A DNA stretch of 64,000 nt from Patescibacteria group bacterium. GTDB lineage: Bacteria; Patescibacteriota; WWE3; UBA101185; UBA10185. Of this stretch, positions 1-49,622 are shown in pieces; position 1 is the stretch's first letter, and every line of letters starts with the position of its first letter. The stretch covers positions 755 through 64,754 of the forward strand of contig JBMORU010000001.1 of the NCBI GenBank assembly GCA_049322215.1, written 5' to 3'. Made by a program: the position numbers and the translations under genes. The notes under the pieces were generated by a model that made no database searches, was not told the origin of the DNA, and saw nothing but the letters and a program-made list of their open reading frames with translations.

Positions 1-3000
1 AAAAGCTGCGTCTAGCGAGGGTGCTTCTGCTCTTTTTGGAAAAGAAAGTAATGCTTTTTTAAATGATGGGCTAGGTGGATATTGGAAAATGGACGACAGC
101 AGCGTTGATGCCGAAGGTGAAATCAGTACGGATTCTTCAGGAAATGGCAACTCCGGTACGCTCTATGGAGACAACTCCACCGGAGATAACGGTACTGGGA
201 TGGATTGTACAGTATCCGGTAAATTTGGGACTGGGTGTGATTTTGACGGAACAGATGACGAAGTTGATGTCTCTGATAGCACATCACTGCATCTGCAATA
301 TGGGGGTGAGATCACACTAGCGGCTTGGATTAAAACATCTGACTCTTCAGGAAATATCATTGATAAAAGTGCAGGAAATGGAACCAATCGATACGGGTTA
401 GGACTTAACTCAGGCTTACTTAGAGCGGCTTTTGTAGCAACAGATTATTCAGGAGACAATAACATTACAGCTTATGGCAGTACAAGTGTAAATGATGGGA
501 ATTGGCATCACGTTGCCATTACATACGAATACGCAACACAAGCTGTTAAATTTTATGTTGACGGTAATTATGAAATTGAAGACACAGTAGCCCCAAGCGA
601 ATCTCTTGGGACTTCAATAGATGCTCTTACTATTGGTGAGAGCCTTCAAGGGCAAGTCGATGAAGCTCGTATATATAATAGAGCACTTTCCTCTAGTGAA
701 GTACAAAACCTCTACGCCTGGGCACCGGAACCCGCGGCTTACTACTCATTTGATGAAAACACAGGCACATCAACAATAAATGACAAGTCGGGCAACAGCT
801 ATAACGGTAGCTTCACAAGTATGAACGAATCATTGTGGACAACAGGTAAATATGGTGCGGGTTTAAGTTTTGATGGTTCTATGCGTATCGTTGGAACAGA
901 CCCGATAGTAAACAACTACCCATTTTCAGTTACAGGTTGGGTAAAGTACACCGCTTCAGGCGCAACCACAGTGTTATTCGGTATAGGAAATTCAGCAAGC
1001 ACAACAGGTTACTACGAAATTCAGGGTACAGGAGCTGGAGGTATTAGAGCTCTTTCTAATAACGGTTCTGATAACTACACAGGTTCTAATACAGCGTATA
1101 ACGATGGTCAATGGCACCATGTTGCTATGATATGGGCAAGTGCTACGGATAGAAAATTTTATATTGACGGCACACTGGATGGAACATCCACCTCAAGTGT
1201 GGCGTTTCAATCTTCGGTAAATCGGTGGAAAATAGGAGAACGTGCCAGTAATTCAACATGCTGCCGATGGAACGGATATGCGGATGAAATAAAAGTATAT
1301 AACTACGCGCTTACTCCAGGACAAATCATACGGGATATGAATGCAGGGCATCCGCTTGGGGGCTCACCAGTAGGATCTCAAATTGCATACTGGAGTTTTG
1401 ATGAAATGTACGGAGATACAGCAAACGATAGCGTTGGTGACATTGAAGGAGACTTAGGAAACACCGATACTACCTGTCCTGCAACTGGAGCAGACTGCCC
1501 AGTTTGGACACCTAATGGCAAAATCAATGGCGCATTAGACTTCAATGGTACTGATGACAATGTATATGTAAACACCCCTAACAATTCGGGTCCTTTATTT
1601 TTGGAAGAAAAACTAACCATTTCTGCCTGGATAAAAGCAGATGACTCGGAAATTGCCGGCACACAATTAGCTGTAGCGAAACAAGCGTCGTCATATCAAA
1701 TTCATTATGCACTTGGGATTGTAAATAATACTGCATATTTTCGTATAGGAGATGCAAGCACTAGTGTAACATTAAATGGCACCACAGATATTTCTAGTGG
1801 AGGAAGCACTTGGTATCATTTGGCAGGTACTTGGGATATAGACATCGATGGGGGTGCAGTTAATCTGTATGTAAACGGTAAGGTTGAAGACACAGACTAT
1901 CGCACAACAGAAATAAGTACGTGGCAAGATCTATACATAGGGGGTGCAGATGATGGTACCGTATCAAATTTTAATGGCTTAATTGATGAGGTTAAAATAT
2001 ATGGTACTTCTCTAACAGCAGAACAAATCCTCATCGACATGAATTCTAACGCAGCAGCCGACTTTGGCGCTAAAACAAACGAAGCTGCAAGCTTAGAAGA
2101 CGGCGCCGGAAACGACCCAGTTGGCCGTTGGAACTTTAACGAAAACACAGGCACAAGTGCAAACGACACCACAGGCAGTGGAAACTTAGGTACATTAAGT
2201 GGTGCCACATGGACTACAGGTGCTCCAGGAAAAAGCACAGCCCTAGTGTTTGATGGAAGTGATGATTATGTAGAAATAGGCACAGACAGTAAAGTAGATA
2301 ATAGCGCACAAGGTAGTATAACAGCATGGGTTTATCCACATGACATGACCGCCACAAACAGGGCCATATTTGGATTTGGTGGCGCAGCTACAGGATTTGC
2401 AGGTAGATTAGAGTTTTATACATATAACGGAGGTCTATTTATTTCACAAAATACTAATGGTGCAACACAAAACTGGATACGAACAAATTACAGCCAATTA
2501 ACCACCAACAATTGGCACCATGTTGCAGTAACAAGTGATGGGGCAGCTTGGAAACTTTACATAAACGGAGTAGAACAAACTACTCTATTGGGTGCAGGGT
2601 CAAATAATGGTAATTGGTTTAGTGATACCACCGCTACAGCACCCGTGCACACAACTATTGGCAGAATTTTTCATAACGGGACATGGAAAGAACCTTACTA
2701 CGGAAAAATAGATGAAGTAACCTTATACGATTACGAACTTTCCCCTGCTCAAGTAGCCTACAACTACAATAGAGGAGCTCCCATTGGCTGGTGGCAGTTT
2801 GATGAGTGTCAAGGTGCAGTAGCCTACGATGCAAGTGGTAACAGTAACAATGGTTCAATAACCATCGGAGCTACAGGAGATAACACTTCCACAGGTACTT
2901 GTTCATCGGGCACTAGTACCGAAGCTTGGAATAACGGTACCACAGGTAAATTTAACGGAAGCTTAGACTTTGATGGTACAGATGATGCTGTTAGTTCAAC

Positions 3001-3535
3001 TACTCTATCAGGCGATCTTGATGATTTATCCGAGTTAAGTGTTTGCATGTGGGTATACAACATTGGCTCAGATACAGACTATGGCTACTTTGATAATTTG
3101 AATGGCGGTGGTGGTGGTTTTGTACTCATGCGTGATGAGAGCGGAAGTACAAGTGGTAGAACTGATACCTACAAAGTGTATATCTCTGAAGCAAGTGGGG
3201 GTGACACAGTACATCTAGAAGGAAACAACAGTATTGCTCAAATCAACACATGGACACATATATGTGGTGTTTACAGAGAAAACAATGTGTCCGGTTTACG
3301 GTTGTATGTTAATGGGAAAGAAGATACGTTTAGCCCTGTTAGTACGGTTGGAGTTACTAACATAGACAGCAGTGGTACTACTGCCTACATTGGAAGAAGA
3401 CAGGGGGGAGACTATCATAGCGGACAAATTGACGACGTTCGAATATACAACTATGCCCTATCACAAACACAAATACAAAACATAATAAATAACGCAGCTG
3501 CTGCAAGATTTGGACCAAACACTGGCAGTCCATAA
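1..3535 (+). CDS. Giant secreted surface protein with at least 5 tandem Concanavalin A-like lectin/LamG (Laminin_G_3) repeats. It is 5'-partial: the reading frame is open from nt 2 to the window edge.
   Basis: Repeating module about 200 aa long carrying the motifs WxFDE..G(T/D)xxxDxSGNgN.G, FDGTDDYV, NWHHVA(V/I)T and IDEV(R/K)IYN(Y)AL(S/T). The in-frame translation upstream of the ATG at 89 (KAASSEGASALFGKESNAFLNDGLGGYWKMDD) matches an internal linker motif of the downstream paralog, so the true start is outside the window. Confidence 0.8.
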   Translation, partial: KAASSEGASALFGKESNAFLNDGLGGYWKMDDSSVDAEGEISTDSSGNGNSGTLYGDNSTGDNGTGMDCTVSGKFGTGCDFDGTDDEVDVSDSTSLHLQYGGEITLAAWIKTSDSSGNIIDKSAGNGTNRYGLGLNSGLLRAAFVATDYSGDNNITAYGSTSVNDGNWHHVAITYEYATQAVKFYVDGNYEIEDTVAPSESLGTSIDALTIGESLQGQVDEARIYNRALSSSEVQNLYAWAPEPAAYYSFDENTGTSTINDKSGNSYNGSFTSMNESLWTTGKYGAGLSFDGSMRIVGTDPIVNNYPFSVTGWVKYTASGATTVLFGIGNSASTTGYYEIQGTGAGGIRALSNNGSDNYTGSNTAYNDGQWHHVAMIWASATDRKFYIDGTLDGTSTSSVAFQSSVNRWKIGERASNSTCCRWNGYADEIKVYNYALTPGQIIRDMNAGHPLGGSPVGSQIAYWSFDEMYGDTANDSVGDIEGDLGNTDTTCPATGADCPVWTPNGKINGALDFNGTDDNVYVNTPNNSGPLFLEEKLTISAWIKADDSEIAGTQLAVAKQASSYQIHYALGIVNNTAYFRIGDASTSVTLNGTTDISSGGSTWYHLAGTWDIDIDGGAVNLYVNGKVEDTDYRTTEISTWQDLYIGGADDGTVSNFNGLIDEVKIYGTSLTAEQILIDMNSNAAADFGAKTNEAASLEDGAGNDPVGRWNFNENTGTSANDTTGSGNLGTLSGATWTTGAPGKSTALVFDGSDDYVEIGTDSKVDNSAQGSITAWVYPHDMTATNRAIFGFGGAATGFAGRLEFYTYNGGLFISQNTNGATQNWIRTNYSQLTTNNWHHVAVTSDGAAWKLYINGVEQTTLLGAGSNNGNWFSDTTATAPVHTTIGRIFHNGTWKEPYYGKIDEVTLYDYELSPAQVAYNYNRGAPIGWWQFDECQGAVAYDASGNSNNGSITIGATGDNTSTGTCSSGTSTEAWNNGTTGKFNGSLDFDGTDDAVSSTTLSGDLDDLSELSVCMWVYNIGSDTDYGYFDNLNGGGGGFVLMRDESGSTSGRTDTYKVYISEASGGDTVHLEGNNSIAQINTWTHICGVYRENNVSGLRLYVNGKEDTFSPVSTVGVTNIDSSGTTAYIGRRQGGDYHSGQIDDVRIYNYALSQTQIQNIINNAAAARFGPNTGSP

Positions 3536-3607
3536 AGAATGTATTTGTGTCATTCTTTCGCATATGGATGCATACAACAAATTTAACTAAAATAAACAAG
3601 TATCTCA

Positions 3608-6600
3608 ATGATTAAAAAAACTATCACCAAAATTAAAAAGACACTTAAAGTAAATAAAAAAAGAGTACTTCCTTTTTTTCTTGGTGCCCTGATAATACTA
3701 CTACCTTTAGTTTATTTGACGATTAAAAATCCAAAAGAAGCACAAGCACAGTGGTTTAATGATGGCTGGGCATACAGAATTAAACTTCCTGTTACTAACA
3801 ATACAACCACCGAATCTGATGTATATATATCCTTTACAGGTGCTGATGTATTAGACACCTCTGCAACTGGCAGATTTCAGGCAGACTGTGGTGACATACG
3901 TTTTACAAAAAGAAATGGGCAGTTACTTCCCTACTACATAAATTCTGGATGTGGCACCTCAAGTACAGATATTGATGTATATTTCGAAGAATTTCCTTCT
4001 GGAACACAAGACATTTACATGTATTATGGCAACCCAAGTGTACAAAATGGGTTTGAAGCATCTGCTTTTGCCTCTTCAGTAGACTCTATAGAAATCCAAA
4101 GAAACACGGCAGATGTAAGTGCTAGCAGCGAAACACAAACTGCTCCAACTAACTTTACAGCATTCGGATCTCTTACAAGTGCCTTTGTGCTTAACTTAAA
4201 CAATCGCCGTCAAAATGCGGGATCTACAACCTCTGCCACTAACGAAAGAGTAAATCAACTCTCCGGGCGAATTGAACTTACTGCCACAGATACAATAACT
4301 TTTTCAAGAAGTTTTGGTGACAACGATGATCATAGGTTTTCCTGGGAATCATGGGAATATACAGGTTCTTCAGGAAATAGTGAATTTATTGTTAGATCAA
4401 GAAATACAGTTACTTTAAGTGCAGTTGAGTCAGCCACTGCAACACTTGACACTACACCAACCGATATAAATAACGTAATCCCTTTTATCACTGGAATTGG
4501 TTGCGATTTAAGCGGAACAGCCTCTACTTGTGGTACAGCTGTAGCGTGGATTTCAGGAACTAATACACTAAACGTAGAGCGCGGTGACGGCACCGCTGAA
4601 AATGTAACTGTACAGGTTGTTTCAGTAGAATTCACAGGATCTGACTGGCAAGTAGCACATGGAGACTCAGGGGACGTTTCTGCAGACTCAGGAACAATTA
4701 CCATAGTAGATAATGCAGATGGCACTACTGCAGGCGGTGGAGATATAAGCGACTGGAGTACTGCTGTAATATTTCATCAAACAAAAGGAGACAGTAATGC
4801 AACTAATGTTGCAATTGCCGATACATCAGCAACCTATCGCCCAAACGCTAATACTAATCAAGTGGATTGGGCATTTAATACAGATCATGACTCGGCTGGA
4901 GATAATAGGCATTTTGTGCATGTCTTAAAAAACCCATACATGACGGTAACACGTTTTACTGACACCGGGGCACTTCAAGGAGCCAATAATGTAGACATAA
5001 CTTCTGCTGGAATAACGGATCTATCTACAACGGCTTCAGAAATTTCATGTACTAGCTCGGGAACAGGTACCGCGTTTGGGCGAGGGTGGAAAAATGGGCG
5101 TATAACAAGTACGACAAACTATGAACACTGGACACACCGGTCAGGAAATACAATTGACTGTGCTATTCAAATTATTGATTTGTCTGGAATAGTTGGAAGC
5201 GCAGGCCTTGGAAGTGCCGCGTCCAACTTTACCATGGGCACATCTGGCTCAGAAGAAAAAGGATCTGGCCCTGTTGGGTACTGGAGATTTAACGAAGGTG
5301 CGGACAATACTTGTCCTAATAATGGCAAAGACGCCTGTGATTCAACTTCAAGAAAAAATGATGCAGCCTTTGGTGCTAGTACAGCAGCGCCCACATGGCA
5401 ACTTCAAAATGCTTGTATATTTGGTAAATGTCTTTTATTTGATGGTAGTGATGATGTAGCCACAGTTACAAATACTAACCCAATAGATTTTGATATTGGC
5501 CTTGAGGGTGGGTTTAGTGTAGTTGCTTGGGTGAAAGCCAGCTCAGACGGAGAAAATGACGTAGGTCAAATTTTTCAAAAAGGCACGAATACATATTTGC
5601 GAATTGATTCCGAAGGGAGCGATGGTTTAGCTGATTTGGAATTTAACCTTGATCTTGCAACTACAGATGCCAACGTTAATATAGCAAACGGCATTACTTT
5701 GAACACATGGCATCATGTAACAGTAACCCACGATGGAACAAGTACCATAACTGTTTACATAGACGGGAAAAATTTGGGTTCAAATACAGGATCGGGCACT
5801 ATGGTCTCTGATGCAAATGACTTGCTTATTGGTGGAACAACTACTGCTAATTTTCATGGATTTATTGATGAATTTAAAATTTTTAACTATGAAAGAGCAG
5901 CTAACAAAGTTAAAACCGATGCTATTAGGGGTGCTTCTGCAGACGGCGCATCTGCTGCTTTTGGCAATGAAAACAAAAATTTTCTTAACGAAGGACTTGT
6001 TGGGTATTGGGACATGGATGAAACAACAGGTGGCATAAATGACTCGTCAGGAGGAAGTAATAATCTTGTTAACCACGGAGCTACATCCTTTGTTGCGGGA
6101 AAATTTGGCAATGGTGGTGACTTTGAATCAGGCAGTTCACAATTTTTTACAGAAGGAAGTACCTCAACGCCAGCGTATGTCAATTCTACACAAAGTGATA
6201 TAACAGCCAGTGGAAATAAAAACATACCTATTCCCAGTGGAACAAGCGTGGGAGATCGCCTTATAGTGAATGTTTCAGGAAACGGAGATGGTCTTGGAAG
6301 CTATTTGACACTTAATAGCGTACCTACAGGATGGACACAAATTGGTAGCACTCAAACATATGATGGAGCCAGCTATAGTGTGGGACAAATTGTATTAACA
6401 GGAATTTATGATGGCACAACCCCTACCATGAATGTATCAATACCTAATGATCCCGATGCGAATCTTATAGTAGGAGCATATTCAAATGCAGATAAAGTAG
6501 ACACTTATATTCAAAATATACAAACTACAGCAAGTACTGTTCATACTACCACTGCAATTACACCAAATGTTGGTGGTGGAGCTCTTCTTGTTGCTATGTG

Positions 6601-9600
6601 GTCTGGAGGTGCAAATATTATTACGGGTACTGCTACAGATGGGAGCTTTACAGAAAGACATGATTACGAGTATTGGGGGCATAACTTTTTATCTACATAC
6701 TACCAAAGCACAGCTGCTGCGGTTCAGGCACAAATGACAGATGACACTGGAGAAGAAACCGCATACACAGTGATGTCTATTTATCCTGCAGGTACAGCTT
6801 CGTCTGCTTTAAGTAATTCAGGAAGCACTACCGTTAGCGCATGGATAAAACCAGAATCGACTACAGCAAGTACTCAATATAATATTGCAGGCAAGTGGGA
6901 TAGTGGTAATGAAGGATATTTACTAGCCCAATATGGTGATGAAATTAGGATGTATATAGGATCAGCTTCTAATTACGTACAAACGTCGGCAACTAATCTC
7001 GCTACGGGCACATGGTATCACGTTGTCGGTTCTTATGACGCTTCTACACAAACAGTAGAAATATATGTTGATGGCGCAAAACAAACAAGCACTGTAACGG
7101 GCACAATACCCTCTTCACTAGCTAATACAGGAGGCCTGTTTCATATTGGGGCGGCTAATTCAGCCGGTACAGCAGATAACTTTTACGATGGTGTTATTGA
7201 TGAAGTGCGCGTATATAGTAGATCATTTTCTCTAGGAGAGGTAAAAGATGTATACAACTGGGCACCAGGACCGGTGGCGTATTGGACGTTGGATGAAAAT
7301 ACAGGAACTACTGCATACGATCAAAGCGGTAATGACTTTAAAGGAAATATGCCCGCAGCGCTTACAGCACCATCTTTTAGAAGCTATACGGAAGAGGTAG
7401 GAAGTTTTAATGACTTTATAACTATAAATAAACCAGCAGGAACTGTAGACGACGATATCATGATTGCAATTATTTATAAAGAAAATAGCGGTGATTTAAC
7501 AGTAGTACCATCTGGATGGACGCTACTTGATCGTGAAACCCCTGCCTCCGACCACGATACACATATTTATTGGAAGCGCGCCAGTTCAGAAGGAGCAAGC
7601 TACACATGGGAATGGGTCAGCAGCGACTGGACACTCGGAGTAATAATTTCATATAGCGGTGCTATTATGAGTGGAAGTCCCATAGATACATACTCTGCCA
7701 ACAGCTCTACCACAGGAACAACAATAACAGCAACAAGTGTTACAACAACTGTAGATAATACAACGGTTTTGGCAGTAGCAACACATTGGAGCGCAACTTC
7801 GGGGAGCTGGACTGGACCTTCAGGATACACAGCACGAGCAGATATAAATACTATCCGCCCCGCAGATAAAACTCAAGCGTCGGCAGGCGCAACTGGAGAT
7901 GCAGTTACCACAACCTCTTCTGGAAGTGAATCATGGACTGCGCATTTGATAGCACTTAAACCACCTGCTGCAGGAGCGCCTGCATGGGTACCTGGTAAGT
8001 TTGGGAGTGCCTTAAAATTTGACGGGTCGCAAGACTATATTGATGTTGGAACAGGCCCCTCTCAAACAAACACTGTAAGTTTTTGGGTAAACCCGACTAC
8101 CACAACAGAATATCCAATAGATTTAAATGGGACGGCCTATGTATGGTTTAACGCAGGCACAGTTACCGCCCAAGGATTTACTTCACCAACTATTTATGTA
8201 AACGGAATTGAGTCAAGTTCTATAGCCGCCAACACATGGAGTCATGTTGCTATAACCACTCAAACTGCCCTAAATGCATCAGATATGGATATTGGTCGGA
8301 TTGAAGGTGTTGGTTTCCATGAAGGCATCATAGACGATGTACGCATTTACGATTATGCTCGAACCTCAGGACAAATCATCGAAGACATGAACGGCGGACA
8401 CCCCTTGGGAGGGTCGCCTGTTGGCTCACAAATACATCGTTGGAAATTTGATGAAATGCAGGGAGATACAGCATACGATCCAATTGGAAATAACAATGGA
8501 AACCTCAGAGGAGCTTGCCCTGGAGCCTCAACATGCCCCACCTGGACATCCTCAGGTAAGATTAATGGCGCGCTTAATTTTAATCCAGCAGACGATGAAG
8601 ACGTAGTAATTACCACACCATCTAACATTGATACAACAGGAGATAGCAAAGGAACGATTACCTTTTGGATGCAGCCCGATTGGAACTCCAGCACAACTTC
8701 AACCGAATATATGATTCTGGGATCTTATGATGCAGTAACAACAGGAGATGGTCTTGCTCTTTTCTTTTGTGGGCCTAGCACTGGCTGCTCTACTGCGGGT
8801 GAATTAGTTTTTTATGCAGCTGACAGTGCAGCTAGACAATCAAATGTTTACATAAGTAATAGCAATCTTTCTTGGGCTGCAGACGACTGGGTGCATGTAG
8901 CCTTAGTTTGGGATGACACACTTACAACTGACAGCATGAGAATTTTTATTAACGGTGTAGAACCACCTCACGGCGCAAACACACCAGCGAATCTCGATTT
9001 ATCTGCCTTATCAATACCTTCAACAATGAATATTGGAAATATATTTACAGGCTATACAAACAGTTTTGATGGCTCAATTGATGACTTTAAAGTATATAAT
9101 GATACGCTAACTGAAGATCAAATAAGAATTGATATGAATGCTAATGCTGCAGTTAACTTTAGCGTTGGAAACAACGAAGAAGCAGATATAGTAGACGGCA
9201 CAGGAAACCCACCAATTGGTTGGTGGAAATTAGACGAAAATACGGGTACCACAACAGTTTTCGACTCTTCAGGAAACAACAATAATGGCACTATGCAAGA
9301 CCTCAATGAATCAGATTGGTTTCCAGGAGTGTACGGAAGTGCCTTATATTTTGATGGCATAAATACAGCAGGAAATGAAGATGTGGTAGATATTTATTCA
9401 AGCAACTTTGCGTCACAGTTTAATACATCTGCAGGTACATTGTCAGCATGGGTAAAAATGAAAGATGCCGCTACATGGACCGACGGCAACGAGTACAATG
9501 CAGTTACTATTAGAGCAGATTCAAGTAATTTAGTAGTTATAGATAAAGACAATGTATCAAGCTTATTGCGAGTTTCATACGAGGCAGGCGCTACTGCAGA

Positions 9601-10618
9601 AACAGTAACTTATTCAACCACAACTACAGATTGGATTCACCTAGCTATAACATGGGACACAACAGCTGACGAAGTAAGACACTATTTTAACGGCGTGCTG
9701 CAACAAACAGACACAGGATTAGGTACTTGGGTGGGAGCTTTAAGCTCATCAAACGTAGTAATAGGTGGAAACGATACTTCTGGAAATGAACCTTGGCAAG
9801 GCTGGATTGATGATGTGAAAGTATATGATTATGCAAGAACCCAAGCGCAAATTGTATACGATTACAATCGAGGAGAACCTGCAGGTTGGTGGAAGTTTGA
9901 TGAGTGTCAAGGAACCACAGTGCATGACGCCAGCGGTAATGGGAATGACGGAACAGTAACAATAGGCGCTACAGGAGGAAACACCTCGGCAGGAACTTGT
10001 TCTTCAGGAACCAGTACGGAGGCATGGAATAACGGCACCACAGGTAAACTAAACTCAAGCTTGGATTTTGATGGAACTGATGATTATGTATCTATTGCTA
10101 ATGGCGACACGCAGTTTGACCACGGCACTGGTGATTTTTCTCATATGGCTTGGGTAAAAACCACACAAGATTGTACCGGAAATAAAATCTATGTAAGCCA
10201 AAGACAAGATACAAGACCTAATATTTGGATTGGGTGTACTCAGTCTGGCGGTATTGGCGTAGCCGCAGCAGACACAGATTCCAGTAGTACAGGAGTTTCT
10301 AGTTTTCCTGGAACAATACAAATCAATGACGGTAATTGGCACCATATTGCTCTCACAAAACAAGGACACAGCAGCGCTACAGTAAAATTATATGTCGACG
10401 GCATTTTAGATGCCACTATAACCCCGGCGTTTTCAGGAACATTTGATTTTACAGAGAATAAGTTTTCTATAGGAAGATTTGAATTATCACCTTATTATTA
10501 TGCCGACGCACAAATTGACGATGTTAGAGTTTATAGATACGCACTCTCACCAGATCAAATACTTAAAGTAATGAACGAAGGGTCTGCCCGCTTTGGTCCC
10601 GAAACAGGGCCCCCATAG
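3608..10618 (+). CDS. Giant (2336 aa) secreted protein with a signal peptide/N-terminal anchor, a DUF2341 N-domain and about 9 LamG/ConA-like repeats. Paralog of the upstream gene.
   Basis: The N-terminus MIKK..FFLGALIILLPLVYL..AQAQW is signal-peptide-like. WAYRIKLPVTNNTT...DCGDIRFT...LLPYYI...YMYYGNP matches the DUF2341 pattern. Repeated FDG(S/T)DDY.., NWHHVA/TWHHV and IDE(V/F)(R/K)(V/I)(Y/F)N motifs follow. The C-terminus is near-identical to that of gene 1 (ARFGPETGPP vs ARFGPNTGSP). Confidence 0.8.
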   Translation: MIKKTITKIKKTLKVNKKRVLPFFLGALIILLPLVYLTIKNPKEAQAQWFNDGWAYRIKLPVTNNTTTESDVYISFTGADVLDTSATGRFQADCGDIRFTKRNGQLLPYYINSGCGTSSTDIDVYFEEFPSGTQDIYMYYGNPSVQNGFEASAFASSVDSIEIQRNTADVSASSETQTAPTNFTAFGSLTSAFVLNLNNRRQNAGSTTSATNERVNQLSGRIELTATDTITFSRSFGDNDDHRFSWESWEYTGSSGNSEFIVRSRNTVTLSAVESATATLDTTPTDINNVIPFITGIGCDLSGTASTCGTAVAWISGTNTLNVERGDGTAENVTVQVVSVEFTGSDWQVAHGDSGDVSADSGTITIVDNADGTTAGGGDISDWSTAVIFHQTKGDSNATNVAIADTSATYRPNANTNQVDWAFNTDHDSAGDNRHFVHVLKNPYMTVTRFTDTGALQGANNVDITSAGITDLSTTASEISCTSSGTGTAFGRGWKNGRITSTTNYEHWTHRSGNTIDCAIQIIDLSGIVGSAGLGSAASNFTMGTSGSEEKGSGPVGYWRFNEGADNTCPNNGKDACDSTSRKNDAAFGASTAAPTWQLQNACIFGKCLLFDGSDDVATVTNTNPIDFDIGLEGGFSVVAWVKASSDGENDVGQIFQKGTNTYLRIDSEGSDGLADLEFNLDLATTDANVNIANGITLNTWHHVTVTHDGTSTITVYIDGKNLGSNTGSGTMVSDANDLLIGGTTTANFHGFIDEFKIFNYERAANKVKTDAIRGASADGASAAFGNENKNFLNEGLVGYWDMDETTGGINDSSGGSNNLVNHGATSFVAGKFGNGGDFESGSSQFFTEGSTSTPAYVNSTQSDITASGNKNIPIPSGTSVGDRLIVNVSGNGDGLGSYLTLNSVPTGWTQIGSTQTYDGASYSVGQIVLTGIYDGTTPTMNVSIPNDPDANLIVGAYSNADKVDTYIQNIQTTASTVHTTTAITPNVGGGALLVAMWSGGANIITGTATDGSFTERHDYEYWGHNFLSTYYQSTAAAVQAQMTDDTGEETAYTVMSIYPAGTASSALSNSGSTTVSAWIKPESTTASTQYNIAGKWDSGNEGYLLAQYGDEIRMYIGSASNYVQTSATNLATGTWYHVVGSYDASTQTVEIYVDGAKQTSTVTGTIPSSLANTGGLFHIGAANSAGTADNFYDGVIDEVRVYSRSFSLGEVKDVYNWAPGPVAYWTLDENTGTTAYDQSGNDFKGNMPAALTAPSFRSYTEEVGSFNDFITINKPAGTVDDDIMIAIIYKENSGDLTVVPSGWTLLDRETPASDHDTHIYWKRASSEGASYTWEWVSSDWTLGVIISYSGAIMSGSPIDTYSANSSTTGTTITATSVTTTVDNTTVLAVATHWSATSGSWTGPSGYTARADINTIRPADKTQASAGATGDAVTTTSSGSESWTAHLIALKPPAAGAPAWVPGKFGSALKFDGSQDYIDVGTGPSQTNTVSFWVNPTTTTEYPIDLNGTAYVWFNAGTVTAQGFTSPTIYVNGIESSSIAANTWSHVAITTQTALNASDMDIGRIEGVGFHEGIIDDVRIYDYARTSGQIIEDMNGGHPLGGSPVGSQIHRWKFDEMQGDTAYDPIGNNNGNLRGACPGASTCPTWTSSGKINGALNFNPADDEDVVITTPSNIDTTGDSKGTITFWMQPDWNSSTTSTEYMILGSYDAVTTGDGLALFFCGPSTGCSTAGELVFYAADSAARQSNVYISNSNLSWAADDWVHVALVWDDTLTTDSMRIFINGVEPPHGANTPANLDLSALSIPSTMNIGNIFTGYTNSFDGSIDDFKVYNDTLTEDQIRIDMNANAAVNFSVGNNEEADIVDGTGNPPIGWWKLDENTGTTTVFDSSGNNNNGTMQDLNESDWFPGVYGSALYFDGINTAGNEDVVDIYSSNFASQFNTSAGTLSAWVKMKDAATWTDGNEYNAVTIRADSSNLVVIDKDNVSSLLRVSYEAGATAETVTYSTTTTDWIHLAITWDTTADEVRHYFNGVLQQTDTGLGTWVGALSSSNVVIGGNDTSGNEPWQGWIDDVKVYDYARTQAQIVYDYNRGEPAGWWKFDECQGTTVHDASGNGNDGTVTIGATGGNTSAGTCSSGTSTEAWNNGTTGKLNSSLDFDGTDDYVSIANGDTQFDHGTGDFSHMAWVKTTQDCTGNKIYVSQRQDTRPNIWIGCTQSGGIGVAAADTDSSSTGVSSFPGTIQINDGNWHHIALTKQGHSSATVKLYVDGILDATITPAFSGTFDFTENKFSIGRFELSPYYYADAQIDDVRVYRYALSPDQILKVMNEGSARFGPETGPP

Positions 10619-10694: not shown

Positions 10695-11483
10695 ATGAGT
10701 AAAAGCATTTTAATATATACTTCATTAATAATTGTAATTGTCACTTCACTTTTTGGCGTTTATGCCTTTACTAATAAAGAATATTCACAAAAACTCACAT
10801 CAAAAATTATGCAAATAAACGACAATAATAAAGAAAAAGATATACCAAATATGATTGCATTAGACACTGAAGAAATGCCAATATATGCTACTGTATCTAT
10901 AATACCCGATTCAATTAATACGGAAAGCGTTTTTGGCAACCTAAACAAAAACTACCAAATACTCATTTTTGAGAAAAATTCCAAAATAGTTGTAGTAAAT
11001 CCAAAAGAAAACAAAATAGTAGACATAATAAATATAAGCTTTGAAAACACTAACGAAGAACAAAGTAAAACCATGCCAGAGGAAACAGCGGACACAAATT
11101 TACAAACTAACGAAGTCGTTAATCTAAGTGATGGGACTACTCAAAATGAAGAACAAACAGAAGCTGAAGAAACATATACAACTTCTATTACCATACTAAA
11201 TGGTACTAATACACCCGGTATGGCAGGAAAACTTAAAAACACCTTAGAAAATGAATTAAATCTCCCTTTAAATATCGAAAATATAGAATTAAACGATGCA
11301 AAAGGAAATTACGATGACACAGTTGTAATAGAAACAAATCCCAACTCAACCAAACAAAACATTGCTGCCGATTTAATAGCGCAATCATTAAATATATCTA
11401 TTGCTTCTGCCCTACCAGAGCTAGAAAACACTCCGGAGACACAGCTAGTCATAATAGTAGGAGAAGACTACGTTCAAAAATAA
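10695..11483 (+). CDS. Membrane-anchored LytR_C (LytR/CpsA/Psr C-terminal) domain protein
   Basis: N-terminal TM helix (LIYTSLIIVIVTSLFGVYAF). The C-terminal region ITILNGTNTPGMAGKLKNTLENELNL...DDTVVIE matches the LytR_C pattern v.VlNGtgv.GlA. Confidence 0.5.
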   Translation: MSKSILIYTSLIIVIVTSLFGVYAFTNKEYSQKLTSKIMQINDNNKEKDIPNMIALDTEEMPIYATVSIIPDSINTESVFGNLNKNYQILIFEKNSKIVVVNPKENKIVDIINISFENTNEEQSKTMPEETADTNLQTNEVVNLSDGTTQNEEQTEAEETYTTSITILNGTNTPGMAGKLKNTLENELNLPLNIENIELNDAKGNYDDTVVIETNPNSTKQNIAADLIAQSLNISIASALPELENTPETQLVIIVGEDYVQK

Positions 11484-11485
11484 TA

Positions 11486-11662
11486 TTGACATTACCCCGG
11501 TGCAAATATAATATGTTTAAGCATTATCCGAAGACAGCAAGTTTCGTTTGCATGAGCGAATTAAATACCTTGCCGAGGAATCTTTTATATTTATTTGCCA
11601 ATTAAGGTTTAATAACTTTAGATTCACTCACGTCTTCGTGAGTATTTTTTTAGGGAAATTTT
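11486..11662 (+). promoter_or_regulatory. rplJ promoter (TTGACA at 11486, -10 TAATAT/TATAAT about 17 nt downstream) plus L10 leader with a terminator-like attenuator hairpin at 11626-11651 (ACTCACG-tctt-CGTGAGT then T7) just upstream of the start codon
   Basis: Near-consensus sigma70 hexamers are read directly. A 7-bp GC-containing stem followed by a run of 7 T lies 12 nt before the rplJ ATG. This is typical of the autoregulated L10 leader. Confidence 0.45.
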
Positions 11663-25067: not shown

Positions 25068-25775
25068 TTATTCTTTTCCTTCAACTACTTCAAGTAAAGT
25101 GGCTGTAACAACAAGTCTATTTAAAGTTGTTCCTGGTGGATCACATGTTTGCAAAGTAAGAGTAGGTTCAATTACCGGGCGTGTCAAAGGATAGGTATTC
25201 CAACCTTTAAGAGTTTCCTTATTTACTACTTCATAAATATAGTCATCCCCTTCATAAAAAACATGAACTCTGTCGCCCAAATCCAACTTACGAAGCAAAT
25301 TAAACACTTTGGCATAATGACCCAATTCCCAAAAATTAATTGAAGAATGCGCAAACAAGTAAACGTTACCTGCATCTTCAGAAGGATATGGAGAAGTAAC
25401 TGCATGCGCTACACCCTCTTTAAGAGCTTCAAAGTAAGCCTCCTCATCTACAACTGAAACATCGGCTTTTACAGGAGCATTGACTCCAATTTTTTCTATA
25501 ACAACAGAAAAATCTTTATTTACAGGATCAATAGTGATTGGAGAAGTTGTTAAGAATCTGGCGAAGGGGCTATCTTCAACACCATTTGGATTATTTATTG
25601 AGATGTCTTGATTTTTTGTACTTTTCCAAAAGTACCACACTTCATCATAAATTATAGGCCCATATGCCAAAATAAGAAAAAACAAACCAAGAATAATAAG
25701 AATGTTTGGAACAATTTTGAAAAATTTGACTCTAAAAGTAGTTAAGCTCATATGTATAAATGATACTATGCCCAC
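25068..25775 (-). CDS. Sortase family transpeptidase (membrane-anchored)
   Basis: N-terminal TM helix. LTLQTCDPPG is the TLxTC active-site Cys motif. The downstream NRLVV has the Arg and LFAHSS has the His. Paralogous to the sortase at 48062-48718. Confidence 0.65.
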   Translation of the reverse strand: MGIVSFIHMSLTTFRVKFFKIVPNILIILGLFFLILAYGPIIYDEVWYFWKSTKNQDISINNPNGVEDSPFARFLTTSPITIDPVNKDFSVVIEKIGVNAPVKADVSVVDEEAYFEALKEGVAHAVTSPYPSEDAGNVYLFAHSSINFWELGHYAKVFNLLRKLDLGDRVHVFYEGDDYIYEVVNKETLKGWNTYPLTRPVIEPTLTLQTCDPPGTTLNRLVVTATLLEVVEGKE

Positions 25776-31920: not shown

Positions 31921-32721
31921 CTATAAAGGAAAAACTACATTTCCTAAATAGGTCAAAAAGTACTTGTAGTCATAGCTTCTTAAATAAGTAATCACCTCTT
32001 TATCAGGGTGCCCAAAGGCATTTTCTTTCCCCACAGGAATAACAATATAATCAGGTTTATAAGCTTTAAATATATTAGTATTTAAACTTGCAAGCGAGCC
32101 ATGATGAGGAAACTTATATATAAGCAAGGGTTTTTGAGCCCAAGTGGGAGCAACTTCCCCTACTATATTATCTAAAACAGTGCTAGCCACGTCACCCGTC
32201 ATTAATATTGTAGTATTTGGAGATTCAATAAGCATAACTAGAGATAAACTATTTAAATCTTCAGAAAAATACCCGTTTGGAGGCCATAGTACTTTTATAA
32301 AAATCTCATCTATAGATAAAACATCGCCTCTTTGTAAAATGAATGTTTCGGTGGTTGCAGATGAAATAGCACGCAAATAATCGTCAGCTGCCACATAAAA
32401 ATTAGCAACATAAATGTTTTTAACATTACAATAGTTAACTAAACGACTTAATCCAAAATAATGGTCTTTATGAGGATGTGTGATAAAAACTGAATCTAGA
32501 CGACACTCATTAAACAAAAATAACTCAGATATATAATTAGAAACCTCAAAATTAGGCCCTGCATCTATTAATATTAATTTCCCTTTGCTGGTTTTAATAA
32601 GAGTGGCGTCGCCTTGTCCAACATTCAAAAAACTAACAAAAGGCTTTTTGTTTATTTGAGAGCAGTAAAACAGCAACTGAACAATAAAACCCATCAAAAG
32701 AAGTCCTAGTAATTTACGCAT
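31921..32721 (-). CDS. comEC: ComEC C-terminal metallo-beta-lactamase domain protein, encoded as a separate ORF
   Basis: FLNVGQGDATLI, ITHPHKDH and FPHHGS are MBL-fold motifs of the ComEC/Rec2 C-terminal domain. It overlaps the upstream competence-domain ORF by 8 nt in another frame. Confidence 0.65.
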   Translation of the reverse strand: MRKLLGLLLMGFIVQLLFYCSQINKKPFVSFLNVGQGDATLIKTSKGKLILIDAGPNFEVSNYISELFLFNECRLDSVFITHPHKDHYFGLSRLVNYCNVKNIYVANFYVAADDYLRAISSATTETFILQRGDVLSIDEIFIKVLWPPNGYFSEDLNSLSLVMLIESPNTTILMTGDVASTVLDNIVGEVAPTWAQKPLLIYKFPHHGSLASLNTNIFKAYKPDYIVIPVGKENAFGHPDKEVITYLRSYDYKYFLTYLGNVVFPL

Positions 32722-33745
32722 ATAGCCTATTTATTTTTTTGAATAAAATGATAATACCAAGTAAAGCTAAGTAATAAAGACAAAAAACAGGTTTAGAAAT
32801 GGTGAAGTCTAAATTCATATATGAAAGCCGACTAAAAAACTCATTTATTAAAACAAATGAGTTTACAGGTATAAATAGCAAACTACTAAACAATACTGCT
32901 AAGGCATTACTAACCCTGATAGAAACAAGAAATAAAATTCCAAGCAAAGTTGCAATCGAAATTGACCAAAGAGAAAAAAAATTTACTAAAGGACTTATTA
33001 TGCTAATTCTACCAAAAGTAATAGATATAAGTGGCCATACAAGTAACTGTGCGGCTATAGAACTTACTAAGTCCTCTCTCAACCACGACAAAGGAATGAA
33101 ATTAATTTTTGGCAGTGATTTTCCTATAGGGTCGGTAAGTAAGAATAGACCTAGTGTAGATAAAAAGCTTAATTGAAAACTTAAGCTGAACAAACTGCTA
33201 GGAGAATGAATCAACATTAGTAAAGCCACAATAAGCAATGAGTACAAACTTCCAACTGACCTCCCATATACCTTACCTGTTAAGGCAAATACTATCATTA
33301 GCCACGCACGCACTACGGGTGCCTCAAACCCAACTAGCCAAACATAAAGAATTAGTATGACATTTATAAAAAGGAAATTCCTTGGTAAATATATAGACCC
33401 AAATATGCTTAATAAAAGTTGCACCAATAACTGCACGTTGTAGCCAGATACCACAGCAACATGTATTGTTCCGTTTTCTATTAGCTGTTCTTTAAAAATT
33501 GGTACATTGTAAAAAAAGTCTGACCCTACAAGTAAACCAACTATTAATTCACTTTCAGGGCTTGGAAAGTAGTTTTTAATTTCATCGTAAATTTCGCTCT
33601 TAATAGAGTCTTGCTTAAAAATGGTATCTGTCTCAAGCTCAACAGACTTACATGAAAATTCATGAAAAATGGTCGGACAAAAAGTAAGCAATCTAAATAT
33701 AAGAATAATCATTAATGGAAGTATTACTTTTAAAACTCTACTCAA
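32714..33745 (-). CDS. comEC: ComEC/Rec2 competence-domain polytopic membrane protein (N-terminal part of a split ComEC)
   Basis: Polytopic membrane protein of 343 aa immediately between comEA and the MBL-domain ORF. This matches the canonical comEA-comEC arrangement. Confidence 0.5.
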   Translation of the reverse strand: MSRVLKVILPLMIILIFRLLTFCPTIFHEFSCKSVELETDTIFKQDSIKSEIYDEIKNYFPSPESELIVGLLVGSDFFYNVPIFKEQLIENGTIHVAVVSGYNVQLLVQLLLSIFGSIYLPRNFLFINVILILYVWLVGFEAPVVRAWLMIVFALTGKVYGRSVGSLYSLLIVALLMLIHSPSSLFSLSFQLSFLSTLGLFLLTDPIGKSLPKINFIPLSWLREDLVSSIAAQLLVWPLISITFGRISIISPLVNFFSLWSISIATLLGILFLVSIRVSNALAVLFSSLLFIPVNSFVLINEFFSRLSYMNLDFTISKPVFCLYYLALLGIIILFKKINRLYA

Positions 33746-34364
33746 AGCTAACTTCCTTGCTTATAGAATGTGCAGTATTTGAGGGCAAACCACTTCTTTC
33801 CAGAAAGTCATCTACAGAACCATAAGGTCGATTTTGTATAATTAAAGCTGCGTATTTTGGGCCTATACCCTTAAGTTCATCTAACTCAGCGGCAGAAGCA
33901 GTATTTATTGAAATTCTTGAATTCTGAGATACCTCACTAGTCCCTTCAAAAATGGACTCAGGCATAGAGTCTGAAATATTTACAGTGGCTTCAGTTAGCC
34001 AACTATCACTTAGCAGTGGAATATATACCTTACTACCAGAGGTAACTTTAGAAGCAAGAGACAAGTTTTTTTCTATCCAGGATAAGTCAGCATCAGGACT
34101 AAAACCCCCTGCAGTGCTAATTAGGTCAGACAATATAGTATTAGAAGGAACCCAATAAACGCTTGGTAAATTTATTCCACCTGATATATCAACAGGTATT
34201 AAATCTACAGAGGCTGTGGAATTTAAATTGGTATCAATTTCACTTGTGTTAGGATTTATTTTTTCGGTATATGATTCATTTCTTTTTTCTACAGCAAAGT
34301 AAATAAATAAAACGACGACTATACAAAACAACACACTACTAATAAGACTGAAAACTTTTAGCAT
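33738..34364 (-). CDS. comEA: ComEA competence protein (helix-hairpin-helix DNA-binding), membrane anchored
   Basis: INTASAAELDELKGIGPKYAALIIQNRPYGSVDDFLERSGL is the C-terminal HhH motif. N-terminal TM helix. Confidence 0.7.
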   Translation of the reverse strand: MLKVFSLISSVLFCIVVVLFIYFAVEKRNESYTEKINPNTSEIDTNLNSTASVDLIPVDISGGINLPSVYWVPSNTILSDLISTAGGFSPDADLSWIEKNLSLASKVTSGSKVYIPLLSDSWLTEATVNISDSMPESIFEGTSEVSQNSRISINTASAAELDELKGIGPKYAALIIQNRPYGSVDDFLERSGLPSNTAHSISKEVSFE

Positions 34365-34592
34365 TATTACAATTTACACATATTTAGTTGTACTAAAATG
34401 CTTATTATTCTATTTAAATTAGAGAATAATTACCGCACAAATATGTGCGGGGAATTTACCACTTATGTATTAATAACAAAATATCATTATTTTTCCCCGC
34501 AAAAATACCGCATTGTTATGCTGAATAAATGCGACACATTGCTACAAAACATTGAGCACTTATTTATAAAAACTTTTAATTGTTATGGAATA

Positions 34593-34931
34593 TTAGTTAG
34601 ATTCTTCTAAAGCTTCCTGCATAATCTCTTTAAAGGCATCATTCTTATTTAAGTCACGAAGCAATGAAACAATTTTGGTCTTATTTAGAGTATAAAAAAC
34701 TTCTCTTCCCTTTTTGTCACTTCTTAAAAACCCCAAAGAGGCTAAAACACGCAAATGATGAGAAGCTAGATTTTCCTCTACATTAAGATTTTCAGCAACA
34801 TCGCCTACATTTTTCCTACCGTCACTCAGCATGCTTAAAATCTTAAGTCTGTTTTTGTCTGATAGCGCTTTAGAAAGCTTTATTATATTAACCATTGTGT
34901 GTAATATACAATGAACATTAGAATATTTCAA
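34593..34931 (-). CDS. ArsR/SmtB family transcriptional regulator
   Basis: LSDKNRLKILSMLSDGRKNVGDVAENLNVEENLASHHLRVLASLGFL is a winged-HTH ArsR signature. Confidence 0.7.
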   Translation of the reverse strand: MKYSNVHCILHTMVNIIKLSKALSDKNRLKILSMLSDGRKNVGDVAENLNVEENLASHHLRVLASLGFLRSDKKGREVFYTLNKTKIVSLLRDLNKNDAFKEIMQEALEESN

Positions 34932-34941
34932 ACAATAAACA

Positions 34942-36543
34942 TTAGAATGTTTTTGCCCTAAACTGCCAAGCTTCTAATATGTGTTTGTCTACAATTGTTT
35001 TTGAATCCTCTAAATCAGCAATAGTTTGACCCAACTTAATTAATTTAAAATAAATACGCATTGAGAATTGATACTTCTTTTTTAATTCATTTAAAACATC
35101 ATAAGCCTCAGAAGAAACACTTAATAGGTCAGTAATCAAATTAAAAGGAAGCTTAGCGTTAGTAGAAAATGAATAGTTTTTATAACGATCCTTTTGCTTA
35201 TAGCGGGCATTGCTAATTTTATTTAGCAGTTCTTGAAAATTTACAGCAGACGGAAGCCTCTTAGTACTTAAATCTACTGGAGTTAAGTGCACTAACATAT
35301 CAAATCTATCTAAAATTGGTCCGGAAATTTTCTTAGTGTACCTAGTACGCTCAGAAACACTACATTTGCAGTCTATGCTTGGATGTGTTGAATACCCACA
35401 GGGACAAGGATTCATGGCAGCAACAAGCAGAAAGTTACAAGGAAAAACAGATGTTCCGCTAGCGCGGGCAAGGCGTACTGTTCCAGACTCTATAGGTTCT
35501 CTTAGAGATTCTATTACACTTCTAGAAAATTCTGGGAGCTCATCGAGAAATAAAACACCATTATGTGCTTTAGTAACTTCACCCGGCTTAAGCGCAGCTC
35601 CACCCCCTATTATACTGATATGAGAACTTGTATGATGTGGTGATCTAAAAAGCTCTTTAGAATTAAAAATAGGCCTTGTATTTTGTAGCGAAGAAATTTT
35701 CATTACTTCAAGCTTTTCTTCACTAGATAGTGGAGGTAACAGATCCAGTAGGGATTTAGCTAATAAAGTTTTTCCTACCCCCGGAGAACCGTACAGTAAA
35801 AGATTGTGATTACCTGCAGCTGCAATATGTAGAGCATGTTTAGCCTTATATTGCCCTATAATGCTAGTATATGCGGAAGCGGTAAAATTTAACGGAACTT
35901 TTTTGTCTGTTACATCAAACTCTGTGGGTTTAGTCGACAATCCAATACACTTGGATAATTTATAAGTGCCCTGCAAATGCGCATGTAGAGCAGTCAAAGA
36001 TTCTACTATATATACTTCACTAAATATATTAAAAAACTCTTGATATAGTTGCGCATTTTTTGGTAACAACAACCCAGTCGCATGCTGGTTTTTTGCAAAT
36101 TCAAAGAAAATAGGAATACCCTTTATATGACGTACAGTTCCATCTAGTGAAAGTTCTCCAAGTACTAATATTTCTTTGGGAAATTCTACTTTTAGTAAAC
36201 AACATATGATCCCCAGAGCAATTGGTAAATCGTAATAGGAACCGTTTTTTGGTACATCTGCTGGAGCCAAATTAATAGTAATTCTAGCTGGCGGAAAATT
36301 GATTCCAGAATTAAGCAAAGCAGTTCTAATGCGTTGTTTGCTTTCTGCAATTGCCTTATTAGGTAAACCTACAATATCAAAAGTTGGAAAACCTCTACTA
36401 GCAACATCTACTTCTACAGTAATAGGAATCGCACTTAATCCCACCAAGGCCGCAGAAGAAACTTTAACTAGCATAAAAAACCCCAGAAGACTCAAATACA
36501 ACACCTGCGACACATAAACTTGTTGTTTCAATAGATAAAACAC
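34942..36543 (-). CDS. comM: YifB/ComM family Mg-chelatase-like AAA+ ATPase. The real start is probably an internal Met near 36474; the ORF start overlaps dprA.
   Basis: ALVGLSAIPITVEVDVASRGFPTFDIVGLPNKAIAESKQRIRTAL is the Lon-like N-domain. GSPGVGKTLLAKSL is Walker A. Confidence 0.8.
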   Translation of the reverse strand: MFYLLKQQVYVSQVLYLSLLGFFMLVKVSSAALVGLSAIPITVEVDVASRGFPTFDIVGLPNKAIAESKQRIRTALLNSGINFPPARITINLAPADVPKNGSYYDLPIALGIICCLLKVEFPKEILVLGELSLDGTVRHIKGIPIFFEFAKNQHATGLLLPKNAQLYQEFFNIFSEVYIVESLTALHAHLQGTYKLSKCIGLSTKPTEFDVTDKKVPLNFTASAYTSIIGQYKAKHALHIAAAGNHNLLLYGSPGVGKTLLAKSLLDLLPPLSSEEKLEVMKISSLQNTRPIFNSKELFRSPHHTSSHISIIGGGAALKPGEVTKAHNGVLFLDELPEFSRSVIESLREPIESGTVRLARASGTSVFPCNFLLVAAMNPCPCGYSTHPSIDCKCSVSERTRYTKKISGPILDRFDMLVHLTPVDLSTKRLPSAVNFQELLNKISNARYKQKDRYKNYSFSTNAKLPFNLITDLLSVSSEAYDVLNELKKKYQFSMRIYFKLIKLGQTIADLEDSKTIVDKHILEAWQFRAKTF

Positions 36544-37318: not shown

Positions 37319-37412
37319 ATTGAAAGACTATTCGAGGTTCAAGTTTCATACAAATACATTATTTCTAGTTAAAATAGATTGTTCATATGTAAATTTAAGA
37401 TATAATCACCGT

Positions 37413-49526: not shown

Positions 49527-49593
49527 AGTTTTTTTATTTTTTAGGCAAGAAAATTTAACAGAATATCTGCTAGTAAATGGGTAACTTTGAAAA

Positions 49594-49622
49594 ATATTAA
49601 CCCAGTTTTGCAAGTTTGTCAA
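49594..49622 (-). promoter_or_regulatory. Sigma70-like promoter for the LPDTG-protein/sortase operon
   Basis: On the minus strand: TTGACA-17 nt-TAATAT, about 65 nt upstream of the MNTTK start. Confidence 0.45.

Follow-up and report, generated by a model that had tools for sequence, protein, structure and literature searches.

How are two adjacent giant genes of a Patescibacteria genome, which share conspicuous blocks of similar sequence, related to each other, and what could their products be doing? The genes, here denoted P1 and P2, open a stretch of 64,000 nucleotides of contig JBMORU010000001.1 (assembly GCA_049322215.1, WWE3 lineage, positions 755 to 64,754; hereinafter, the window). The original prediction, made from the letters of the window, described their products as surface proteins that consist almost entirely of LamG repeats, are built from shuffled modules allowing recombination and size variation, and are candidate adhesins or host-interaction factors. 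The explanation that we favor as a whole, with a probability of roughly 0.6, is that P1 and P2 are colinear paralogues, products of an ancient duplication, in an exported family composed of DUF2341 and six LamG domains, that P2 carries three added beta-rich modules, and that the two proteins work by the mechanism proposed below.

The existence of two adjacent giant genes on the same strand was correctly recognized from the sequence (Table 1). However, the arrangement of their domains is not that of shuffled modules. In a global alignment, P1 (1396 visible residues; see below) is colinear with residues 556-2336 of P2 through six LamG domains, at 42% identity, and the sole large gaps correspond to two domains, inserts A and B, which are present in P2 and not in P1. 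The blocks of high identity that had attracted attention do exist: over 91 aa each, their identity amounts to 59% and 69%, with cores at 78% (41 aa) and 77% (78 aa), and 8 of the last 10 residues of the two proteins match, as had been noticed. At the DNA level, a blastn self-comparison of positions 1-10618 recovers two matches, 2684-2986 versus 9781-10084 at 72% and 1317-1429 versus 8367-8479 at 76%, but no recombinogenic repeats. The claim that the blocks lie in different positions does not hold: they keep a constant offset, so nothing has been shuffled. Synonymous divergence (dS) between P1 and P2 is saturated, at 1.0-2.8, in every segment, the conserved ones included, which rules out gene conversion between the blocks; given also that the longest identical DNA word is only 19 nt and that Tandem Repeats Finder detects no tandem repeats, the proposed recombination and size variation find no support. 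Apart from a 300-nt paralogous block of P1 and P2 with an identity of about 71-72%, the 64 kb window contains no direct repeats of 50 nt or more, and it contains no inverted repeats. Likewise, we found no diversity-generating retroelement: there is no variable/template repeat pair in the 64 kb and no reverse transcriptase among the open reading frames (ORFs) of the window that were scanned (30 in number, here and wherever genes are said below to be missing among the scanned ORFs).

What, then, keeps these blocks similar? The same stretches, namely the linker between LamG-3 and LamG-4, the linker between LamG-5 and LamG-6 with the FDECQG...GTC loop, and the C-terminus, are conserved when 19 members of the family in other genomes are aligned, so that the blocks are family signatures under purifying selection rather than substrates of recombination. 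P1 and P2 are reciprocal best or near-best matches among the family members, and the duplication that gave rise to them is ancient; the size difference between them stems from the three extra domains of P2, not from the number of repeats. Repetitive domains in tandem genes are, to be sure, a classic substrate for variation, and the two blocks at 72-76% nucleotide identity could be taken in the same sense, but with the colinear domain order, the saturated dS, the lack of long repeats, the conservation of the blocks in other genomes and a length difference that is accounted for by three inserted domains, the possibility that the two genes are mosaics of shuffled modules driving recombination, size and antigenic variation has very little chance of being correct.

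A domain parse with Pfam bears out the assignment of the LamG and DUF2341 domains. Laminin_G_3 (PF13385, cut-off 27.6 bits) matches P1 with E=2e-110 (366 bits, five stretches) and P2 with E=1e-102 (341 bits, six stretches), and a profile made from the repeats themselves recovers the same domains; DUF2341 (PF10102) is matched at residues 93-147 of P2, with 33.9 bits against a cut-off of 23.4. The LamG domains of P2 start at residues 557, 799, 1224, 1610, 1871 and 2093, and the first of these matches an S-layer domain-containing protein in the PDB (4qvs, E=7e-8). Further Pfam matches, weaker and overlapping, are to Laminin_G_1/2, Toxin_R_bind_N, the Sialidase N-terminal domain and Pentaxin. These are lectin-like jelly-roll families, and searches of Pfam and NCBIfam find in P1 and P2 only families of the lectin or binding type and no catalytic glycoside hydrolase (for example, GH16), lyase or esterase family. 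Because the Pfam matches are confined to lectin-like jelly rolls, both proteins appear to be of the lectin type rather than catalytic. The description of the proteins as almost entirely LamG was an overstatement: in P2, the LamG share is about 55-60%, and some 950 of the 2336 residues (1-150, 151-556, about 854-1055 and 1262-1460) belong to the signal and DUF2341 region, to a domain that we denote module M, and to the two nested inserts. The signal peptide of P2 was, in contrast, correctly identified; it is a Sec-type export signal, and its 19-residue hydrophobic stretch is the sole transmembrane-like segment of P2, and judging from its sequence, the N-terminus could be either a cleaved signal peptide or an uncleaved anchor.

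The placement of P1 and P2 within a family becomes clear from a survey of 17 loci (this locus and 16 others, designated by L numbers where they have to be told apart). A canonical member is 1450-1600 aa long and consists of a signal, DUF2341, five to seven (about six) LamG domains joined by short linkers, one of which contains GHPxxGSP, and a C-terminus that follows directly after the last LamG domain; the start of DUF2341 is marked by the motif W[FW]D..W.YR at residues ~40-90. Full-length homologues, labeled as Woese-, Davies-, Roizman-, Ames- and Blackburn-bacteria and WWE3, are about 30-35% identical to P2 over residues 1458-2336 and 45-65% identical over the signal and DUF2341. Two or three DUF2341-LamG genes lie side by side on the same strand in L004, L005, L008, L012, L018, L020, L022 and L081, and possibly in L014, and paralogues within one genome tend to be mutual best matches on very long branches. 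The tandem arrangement of P1 and P2 is ordinary for the phylum. By exact-sequence look-up, the window begins 657 nt in from the end of a Logan contig of 69.6 kb, L001, so P1, which has 1177 codons in the window, can be followed for 1396 aa in L001, where it begins inside LamG-1 and its 5' end is lost at the contig end. From this visible start to the stop codon, P1 conforms to the canonical plan, and by comparison with that plan it very probably lacks only about 170 N-terminal residues in the visible sequence. The apparent restriction of DUF2341 and the signal peptide to the second gene, which the original prediction took at face value, is thus probably a truncation artefact: P1 is cut at the contig end, and most of the complete copies in the tandem arrays of relatives carry a DUF2341 start motif of their own.

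Two short signatures delineate the family. Operationally, we define it by one internal GHPxxGSP linker located about 740 aa upstream of the C-terminus together with an RFG(PxTGSP) ending directly after the last LamG domain, and both P1 and P2 possess this linker and this ending. The invariant form of the linker, EDMN[AG]GHPxxGSPVGS, occurs once per protein in most homologues, at that same distance from the C-terminus. The ending RFGPxTGSP is located at the extreme C-terminus in 18 of the 29 long homologues. It is not a generic linker between LamG domains, given that the full motif is terminal in 18 of its 19 occurrences among these homologues; furthermore, 15 of the 1754 ORFs in the sampled loci end with the motif, and all 15 are family members with the motif in the terminal position. 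The complete tail closes 40 of 120 matches to the last LamG domain, and about 30 others terminate at AVRFG(x), six residues short of it; taking the homologues overall, roughly half possess the tail and roughly a third have the shorter ending. The related motif HPxxGSP occurs once internally, in the linker. The resemblance of the GPxTGxP tail to the LPXTG sorting signal might suggest a sortase substrate. However, nothing follows the tail at the C-terminus, neither a transmembrane segment nor a basic tail, the T position varies (E, A, S, F), and canonical substrates, with LPDTG or VPDTG followed by a transmembrane segment and a basic tail, are encoded elsewhere in the window, so the tail is not a sortase signal. 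The window does encode two sortases, at 25068-25775 (-) and 48062-48718 (-). The second one adjoins a 263-aa protein (48861-49652, -) that ends in LPDTG, a hydrophobic segment and KRKSK, and another ORF (46034-46573, -) carries VPDTG and a transmembrane segment; the first sortase is part of an MreB-PEGA-sortase group that is found also in L081.

Within the family, module M and the two inserts are found only in P2 and in none of the 16 other parsed loci, so P2 is a decorated variant of the canonical scaffold. Module M (aa 151-556) has no match in Pfam, NCBIfam, PHROG or PDB sequence searches, and Pfam, NCBIfam and PDB sequence searches of the module, the inserts and the DUF2341 region together return nothing significant beyond the PF10102 match. 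Nevertheless, proteins of other phyla contain segments that share 40-55% identity with module M, and an exhaustive profile search retrieves 875 representative clusters at E<=1e-3 and 712 at E<=1e-10. Of the best 150 matches, 86 begin with the module at the initiator methionine and lack a signal peptide; in 24, the module comes after a signal peptide (with examples of the Flavobacteriia type); and in 38 it is internal. The Flavobacteriia homologues often carry the C-terminal sorting domain of the type IX secretion system (T9SS), PF18962 (Por_Secre_tail); this cargo tail is absent from the Pfam matches of P1 and P2. Two of the signal-less proteins, both large and with module M at the N-terminus, lie in phage or prophage gene blocks, and 25 IMG/VR contigs encode the module, with up to 50% identity. 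The AlphaFold2 model of module M is all-beta (predicted local distance difference test, pLDDT, 81; predicted template modeling score, pTM, 0.84). An internal three-fold repeat receives weak support, from one pair only (hhalign E=1e-4).

The affinities of insert B are also with phage proteins. This ~200-aa beta-sandwich, modeled with pLDDT 91, matches PHROG 6813, 13624 and 3329 and has stand-alone homologues of 213-350 aa, 32-46% identical to it and devoid of Pfam domains; a profile made from these stand-alone homologues only matches residues 1250-1528 of P2 with E=4.5e-69. Of three genomic contexts of such homologues that were examined, two look phage-like and the third is ambiguous. There is no convincing analogue in the PDB (best E 0.025), whereas the model superposes with template modeling (TM) scores of 0.7-0.86 on many predicted Caudovirales proteins in BFVD, mycobacteriophage minor tail proteins among them. 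Insert A is only weakly similar to the insert-B family. The A2 alignment was too divergent for a pattern scan of viral contigs, and a single-sequence scan returned one viral contig. A domain of the insert-B type is located upstream of module M in four other proteins, and directly adjacent to it in three. Thus, the extra modules of P2 are of kinds otherwise seen in phage tail-type proteins.

So could the neighbors of these genes in related genomes help in understanding their function? In the relatives, the cluster consists of a gene for a membrane-anchored giant fibre, here denoted X, followed by one to three DUF2341-LamG genes. Nine of the 17 loci have X, with the C-terminus ...GF.V....F.WWIVD, upstream of the LamG genes (Table 1), and in L080 and L081 a gene of 5754 or 6844 aa precedes them. 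In L024, X has an N-terminal helix-turn-helix (HTH) domain of the MerR type, one transmembrane segment at ~138-176 and a T/G/S-rich extracellular remainder; a cytoplasmic HTH domain fused to a giant extracellular fibre is an odd combination. X of L015 contains Peptidase_S74, a chaperone domain of phage tail spikes. TPR proteins are encoded directly downstream of the LamG genes in L024 (13504-15561; with a weak, below-cut-off match to Wzy_C, which is O-antigen-ligase-like) and in L022 (12952-15495). In the window, a 783-aa TPR protein (38224-40575) is encoded 28 kb away and adjoins a 250-aa ORF (37320-38072) with a weak MerR_1 match. A connection of the TPR genes with glycosylation is conceivable.

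In functional terms, we infer from the domain types that extracellular, lectin-like adhesion to, or binding of glycans in, surface structures of partner cells is the likeliest role of P1 and P2. Under the mechanism that we propose, both proteins would be exported by the Sec pathway, P2 by virtue of its signal sequence and P1 by analogy with its relatives, and outside the cell each would extend as a long chain of lectin-type domains. Binding to surface glycans or proteins, be they on a partner cell, a host cell or particles, would fall to the LamG cores, which diverge fast (20-35% identity), and to the phage-type modules; scaffold, assembly or retention functions would be supplied by LamG-1, DUF2341, the C-terminal tail and the linkers that are conserved. 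As the LamG genes of relatives come after the gene for X, the LamG proteins might assemble with this membrane-anchored fibre and represent accessory or adhesive parts of one surface appendage. The earlier suggestion of adhesins or host-interaction factors accords with this reading, as well as with the literature, where the concanavalin-like and DUF2341 giant proteins of Patescibacteria have been proposed as candidates for adhesion (PMC11809585, PMC12911398); an adhesion role is proposed in PMC4858521 as well.

Several observations weigh against this reading. No ligand or experiment is known for any member of the family, so the case for adhesion comes from the types of domains. P1 and P2 contain no C-terminal transmembrane segment, LPXTG motif, SLH, T9SS or RTX element, as judged by Pfam and by checks for transmembrane segments and motifs, and if the signal peptide is cleaved, both could simply be secreted. 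The link to X rests on the order of genes in other genomes because this contig ends inside P1. Furthermore, the best structural matches of module M in the PDB, to the C-terminal domain of PCSK9 and to APC-beta domains, have TM scores of only 0.3-0.45, and insert A aligns over its full length to the insert-B-family profile only at domain E values of 0.02-0.12.

Three other functional explanations come to mind, all less well supported than lectin-like adhesion. Perhaps the best of these is that P1 and P2 are secreted proteins for glycan capture or polymer processing, akin to arrays of carbohydrate-binding modules, and serve nutrient scavenging rather than attachment between cells. The lack of a recognizable anchor fits with this possibility, as do the membership of LamG_3 in the superfamily of concanavalin A-like lectins/glucanases, the match of P2 LamG-2 to an extracellular arabinanase chain (PDB 5hon), the label 'hydrolase' of one of the PHROGs matched by insert B, and the presence of genes for glycogen metabolism and glycosyl transfer nearby. 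However, the families matched are those of lectin and binding modules and include none of hydrolases, lyases or esterases, and a structure bound to the cell is suggested by the conserved association, in relatives, with a gene for a membrane-anchored fibre, so we consider this explanation unlikely. Somewhat less likely still is the possibility that the proteins are tip or accessory adhesins of the PilY1/MshQ kind that are displayed by the type IV pilus machinery. Large DUF2341 proteins are indeed encoded in archaeal type IV pilus loci, for which such a display has been proposed (PMC4858521), the distant homologues of LamG-6 include fusions of N_methyl (prepilin) with LamG and a protein named MshQ, and the window contains competence genes (a ComEA-like protein, ComEC and DprA). 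Yet, the N-terminus of P2 is of the Sec type (AQA/Q), not that of a class III prepilin, and does not match PF07963; no pilin, PilB/T/C or prepilin peptidase is encoded among the scanned ORFs of the window or in the flanks of L080 and L081; and it is the giant fibre gene X, rather than any pilus gene, that is the conserved neighbor. Finally, derivation from a prophage or tailocin, with P1 and P2 as tail-fibre genes, might be suspected from the phage and prophage relatives of module M and insert B and from the tail-spike chaperone domain in the X protein of one relative, but is highly improbable considering the export signals on P2 and its homologues, the housekeeping genes in the downstream flank (the only one seen) and the neighbor order common to two other Patescibacteria loci (L080 and L081), the host-like composition of the codons, the lack of phage genes among the scanned ORFs, and the canonical family members that are free of phage-type modules.

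Compared with these alternatives, lectin-like adhesion remains the reading that we prefer, and it invites a more specific, if adventurous, extension. P2 could represent the capture of phage receptor-binding modules by the cellular adhesin scaffold of an episymbiont, such that module M and the minor-tail-type insert recognize the envelope of the bacterial host in the manner of a phage; in addition, the GHPxxGSP/VGS linker and the FGPxTGSP-COOH tail may be an undescribed processing or assembly signal that docks onto the upstream fibre of the relatives. We regard this combined scenario as a long shot.

The genomic setting of the pair (Table 1) can be described briefly. P2 is identical to the NCBI entry 'MAG: DUF2341 domain-containing protein [Patescibacteria group bacterium]', which is located on a contig of 1.11 Mb, so the two genes make up about 1% of the genome. 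There is no terminator-like site on the + strand of the P1-P2 spacer, and co-transcription of the two genes is therefore plausible on sequence grounds. P2 is followed by the genes for a LytR_C-domain protein, an L10 leader, rplJ and rplL. The LytR_C-domain protein (10695-11483; 262 aa, membrane-anchored) is encoded directly upstream of the L10 leader (11510-11659) and rplJ-rplL; the genes upstream of the leader are not rplK-rplA, so the giant genes occupy the usual place of ribosomal-protein neighbors. The GC content of the P1-P2 region, 41-43% versus ~35%, could hint at foreign DNA, but such an origin is ruled out by the host-like GC content at third codon positions (0.28-0.31 in P1 and P2, 0.26 in the arginyl-tRNA synthetase gene); the elevated value reflects codon positions 1 and 2 in genes for proteins rich in Gly, Thr, Ser and Ala. 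Farther along, the MreB-PEGA-sortase group and arginyl-tRNA synthetase, encoded downstream of the LamG genes in L081, and the series arginyl-tRNA synthetase, Lactamase_B protein, ComEC and ComEA-like protein of L080 recur in the window in the same order, so the P1-P2 locus is chromosomal and partly syntenic. The competence-type cluster of the window (31921-37318, -) encodes Lactamase_B, ComEC, a ComEA-like SLBB/HHH protein, a Mg-chelatase-like (ComM-type) ATPase and DprA. Three further ORFs, 49793-51241 (+), 57828-58898 (-) and 59779-61422 (-), have a GC content of 48-50% versus ~35% for the genome; the two that were scanned had no Pfam match, two of the three have an N-terminal signal- or lipoprotein-like sequence, and the three may represent either foreign DNA or surface proteins of unusual composition.

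Table 1. Coordinates of the two giant genes, their domains and signature motifs, and of the fibre gene X in related loci
Feature	Position	Strand	Remarks
P1	2..3535	+	3' portion of a multi-LamG gene from the DUF2341 family; open at the window start; ends in AAARFGPNTGSP before the stop codon
P1 LamG-2'	77..721	+	approximate limits; first strand GYWKMDD, last strand VDEARIY
P1 LamG-3'	737..1345	+	without insert; short loop at the place of P2 insert B
P1 linker GHPLGGSP	1346..1369	+	family signature, within RDMNAGHPLGGSPVGSQ
P1 LamG-4'	1385..2047	+	
P1 LamG-5'	2123..2773	+	
P1 LamG-6'	2786..3496	+	conserved FDECQG...GTC Cys loop
P1 C-terminal tail ARFGPNTGSP	3503..3532	+	extreme C-terminus
P1-P2 spacer	3536..3607	+	72 nt
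P2	3608..10618	+	complete gene, 2336 aa
P2 export signal	3608..3748	+	aa 1-47; basic n-region, hydrophobic LPFFLGALIILLPLVYLTI, AQA before Q48
P2 DUF2341-containing N-domain	3749..4057	+	aa 48-150; 45-65% identical to homologue N-termini
P2 module M	4058..5275	+	aa 151-556
P2 LamG-1	5276..5932	+	four Cys; 56% identical to P1 LamG-1'
P2 LamG-2	6002..7264	+	split by insert A
P2 insert A	6167..6772	+	aa ~854-1055; nested in LamG-2, between its FDG and AWIK strands
P2 LamG-3	7277..8395	+	split by insert B
P2 insert B	7391..7990	+	aa 1262-1461; in the LamG-3 loop that follows the first strands
P2 linker GHPLGGSP	8396..8419	+	family signature
P2 LamG-4	8435..9145	+	
P2 LamG-5	9218..9874	+	
P2 LamG-6	9884..10582	+	conserved Cys loop (TIGATGGNTSAGTCSSGTSTEAWNNGTTGK)
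P2 C-terminal tail ARFGPETGPP	10586..10615	+	extreme C-terminus
Gene X in related loci	L024:1194-7937, L015:2-5887, L080:3-9974, L081:3-5264		also in L004, L008, L013, L014, L018

Patescibacteria depend on attachment to other microbes, and for most lineages there is no known adhesin-receptor pair. Against this background, the present locus provides a clean parse of one of the commonest families of Patescibacteria giants, with the limits of its domains, the invariant linkers, a terminal motif and a partner gene that is conserved, and the phage-type modules of P2 are concrete candidates for determinants of host recognition. These modules comprise an unannotated family (about 400 aa; 875 representative clusters) and a family of about 200 aa for which no closely similar structure has been solved.

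How do P1 and P2 compare with systems that are already known? One resemblance is that of module M to the C-terminal (V) domain of PCSK9 and the APC-beta domain of apicomplexan perforin-like proteins, its best structural matches (Foldseek probability 0.97-0.99); with the low TM scores mentioned above and an identity of about 10%, this is a fold-level resemblance at most. TafC, the tip subunit of haloarchaeal Tat-fimbriae (PMC11821415), has a laminin-G-like lectin domain at the outer end of the filament, similar to the LamG domains of P1, and the TafC model NF052521 matches P1 through its LamG repeats (E=4e-46) but does not match P2. Membership in the TafC family is nevertheless ruled out because the match scores 157.7 bits versus a cut-off of 410; moreover, P1 and P2 have neither a TafA-like donor-strand domain nor a Tat signal and differ from TafC in size and number of domains. 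Giant1-5 of Apilactobacillus kunkeei (PMC12863079) are likewise consecutive, very large genes for extracellular proteins of the glycan-binding type that account for a sizeable part of a small genome, but those proteins are unrelated in fold, being of the beta-solenoid kind, resembling serine-rich repeat proteins, rather than LamG, and recombination tracts have been documented there whereas none are detectable in P1 and P2. With phage receptor-binding and minor tail proteins, such as those of mycobacteriophages and of the three PHROGs matched by insert B, this insert shares the same predicted fold (Foldseek probability 1.0 at the TM scores given above) along with detectable sequence homology; in contrast to the phage proteins, the modules of P2 are embedded in an exported chromosomal protein, with insert B nested in a LamG domain, and the functions of the phage domains themselves are uncharacterized. 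The closest counterparts are the DUF2341/concanavalin A-like (Laminin_G_3) giants of the Patescibacteria, or candidate phyla radiation, which have the same Pfam families, belong to the same phylum, and share with P1 and P2 the architecture, the linker, the tail and the tandem arrangement. Thus, P1 and P2 are members of a known, uncharacterized kind of protein, to which P2 alone adds module M and two nested domains.

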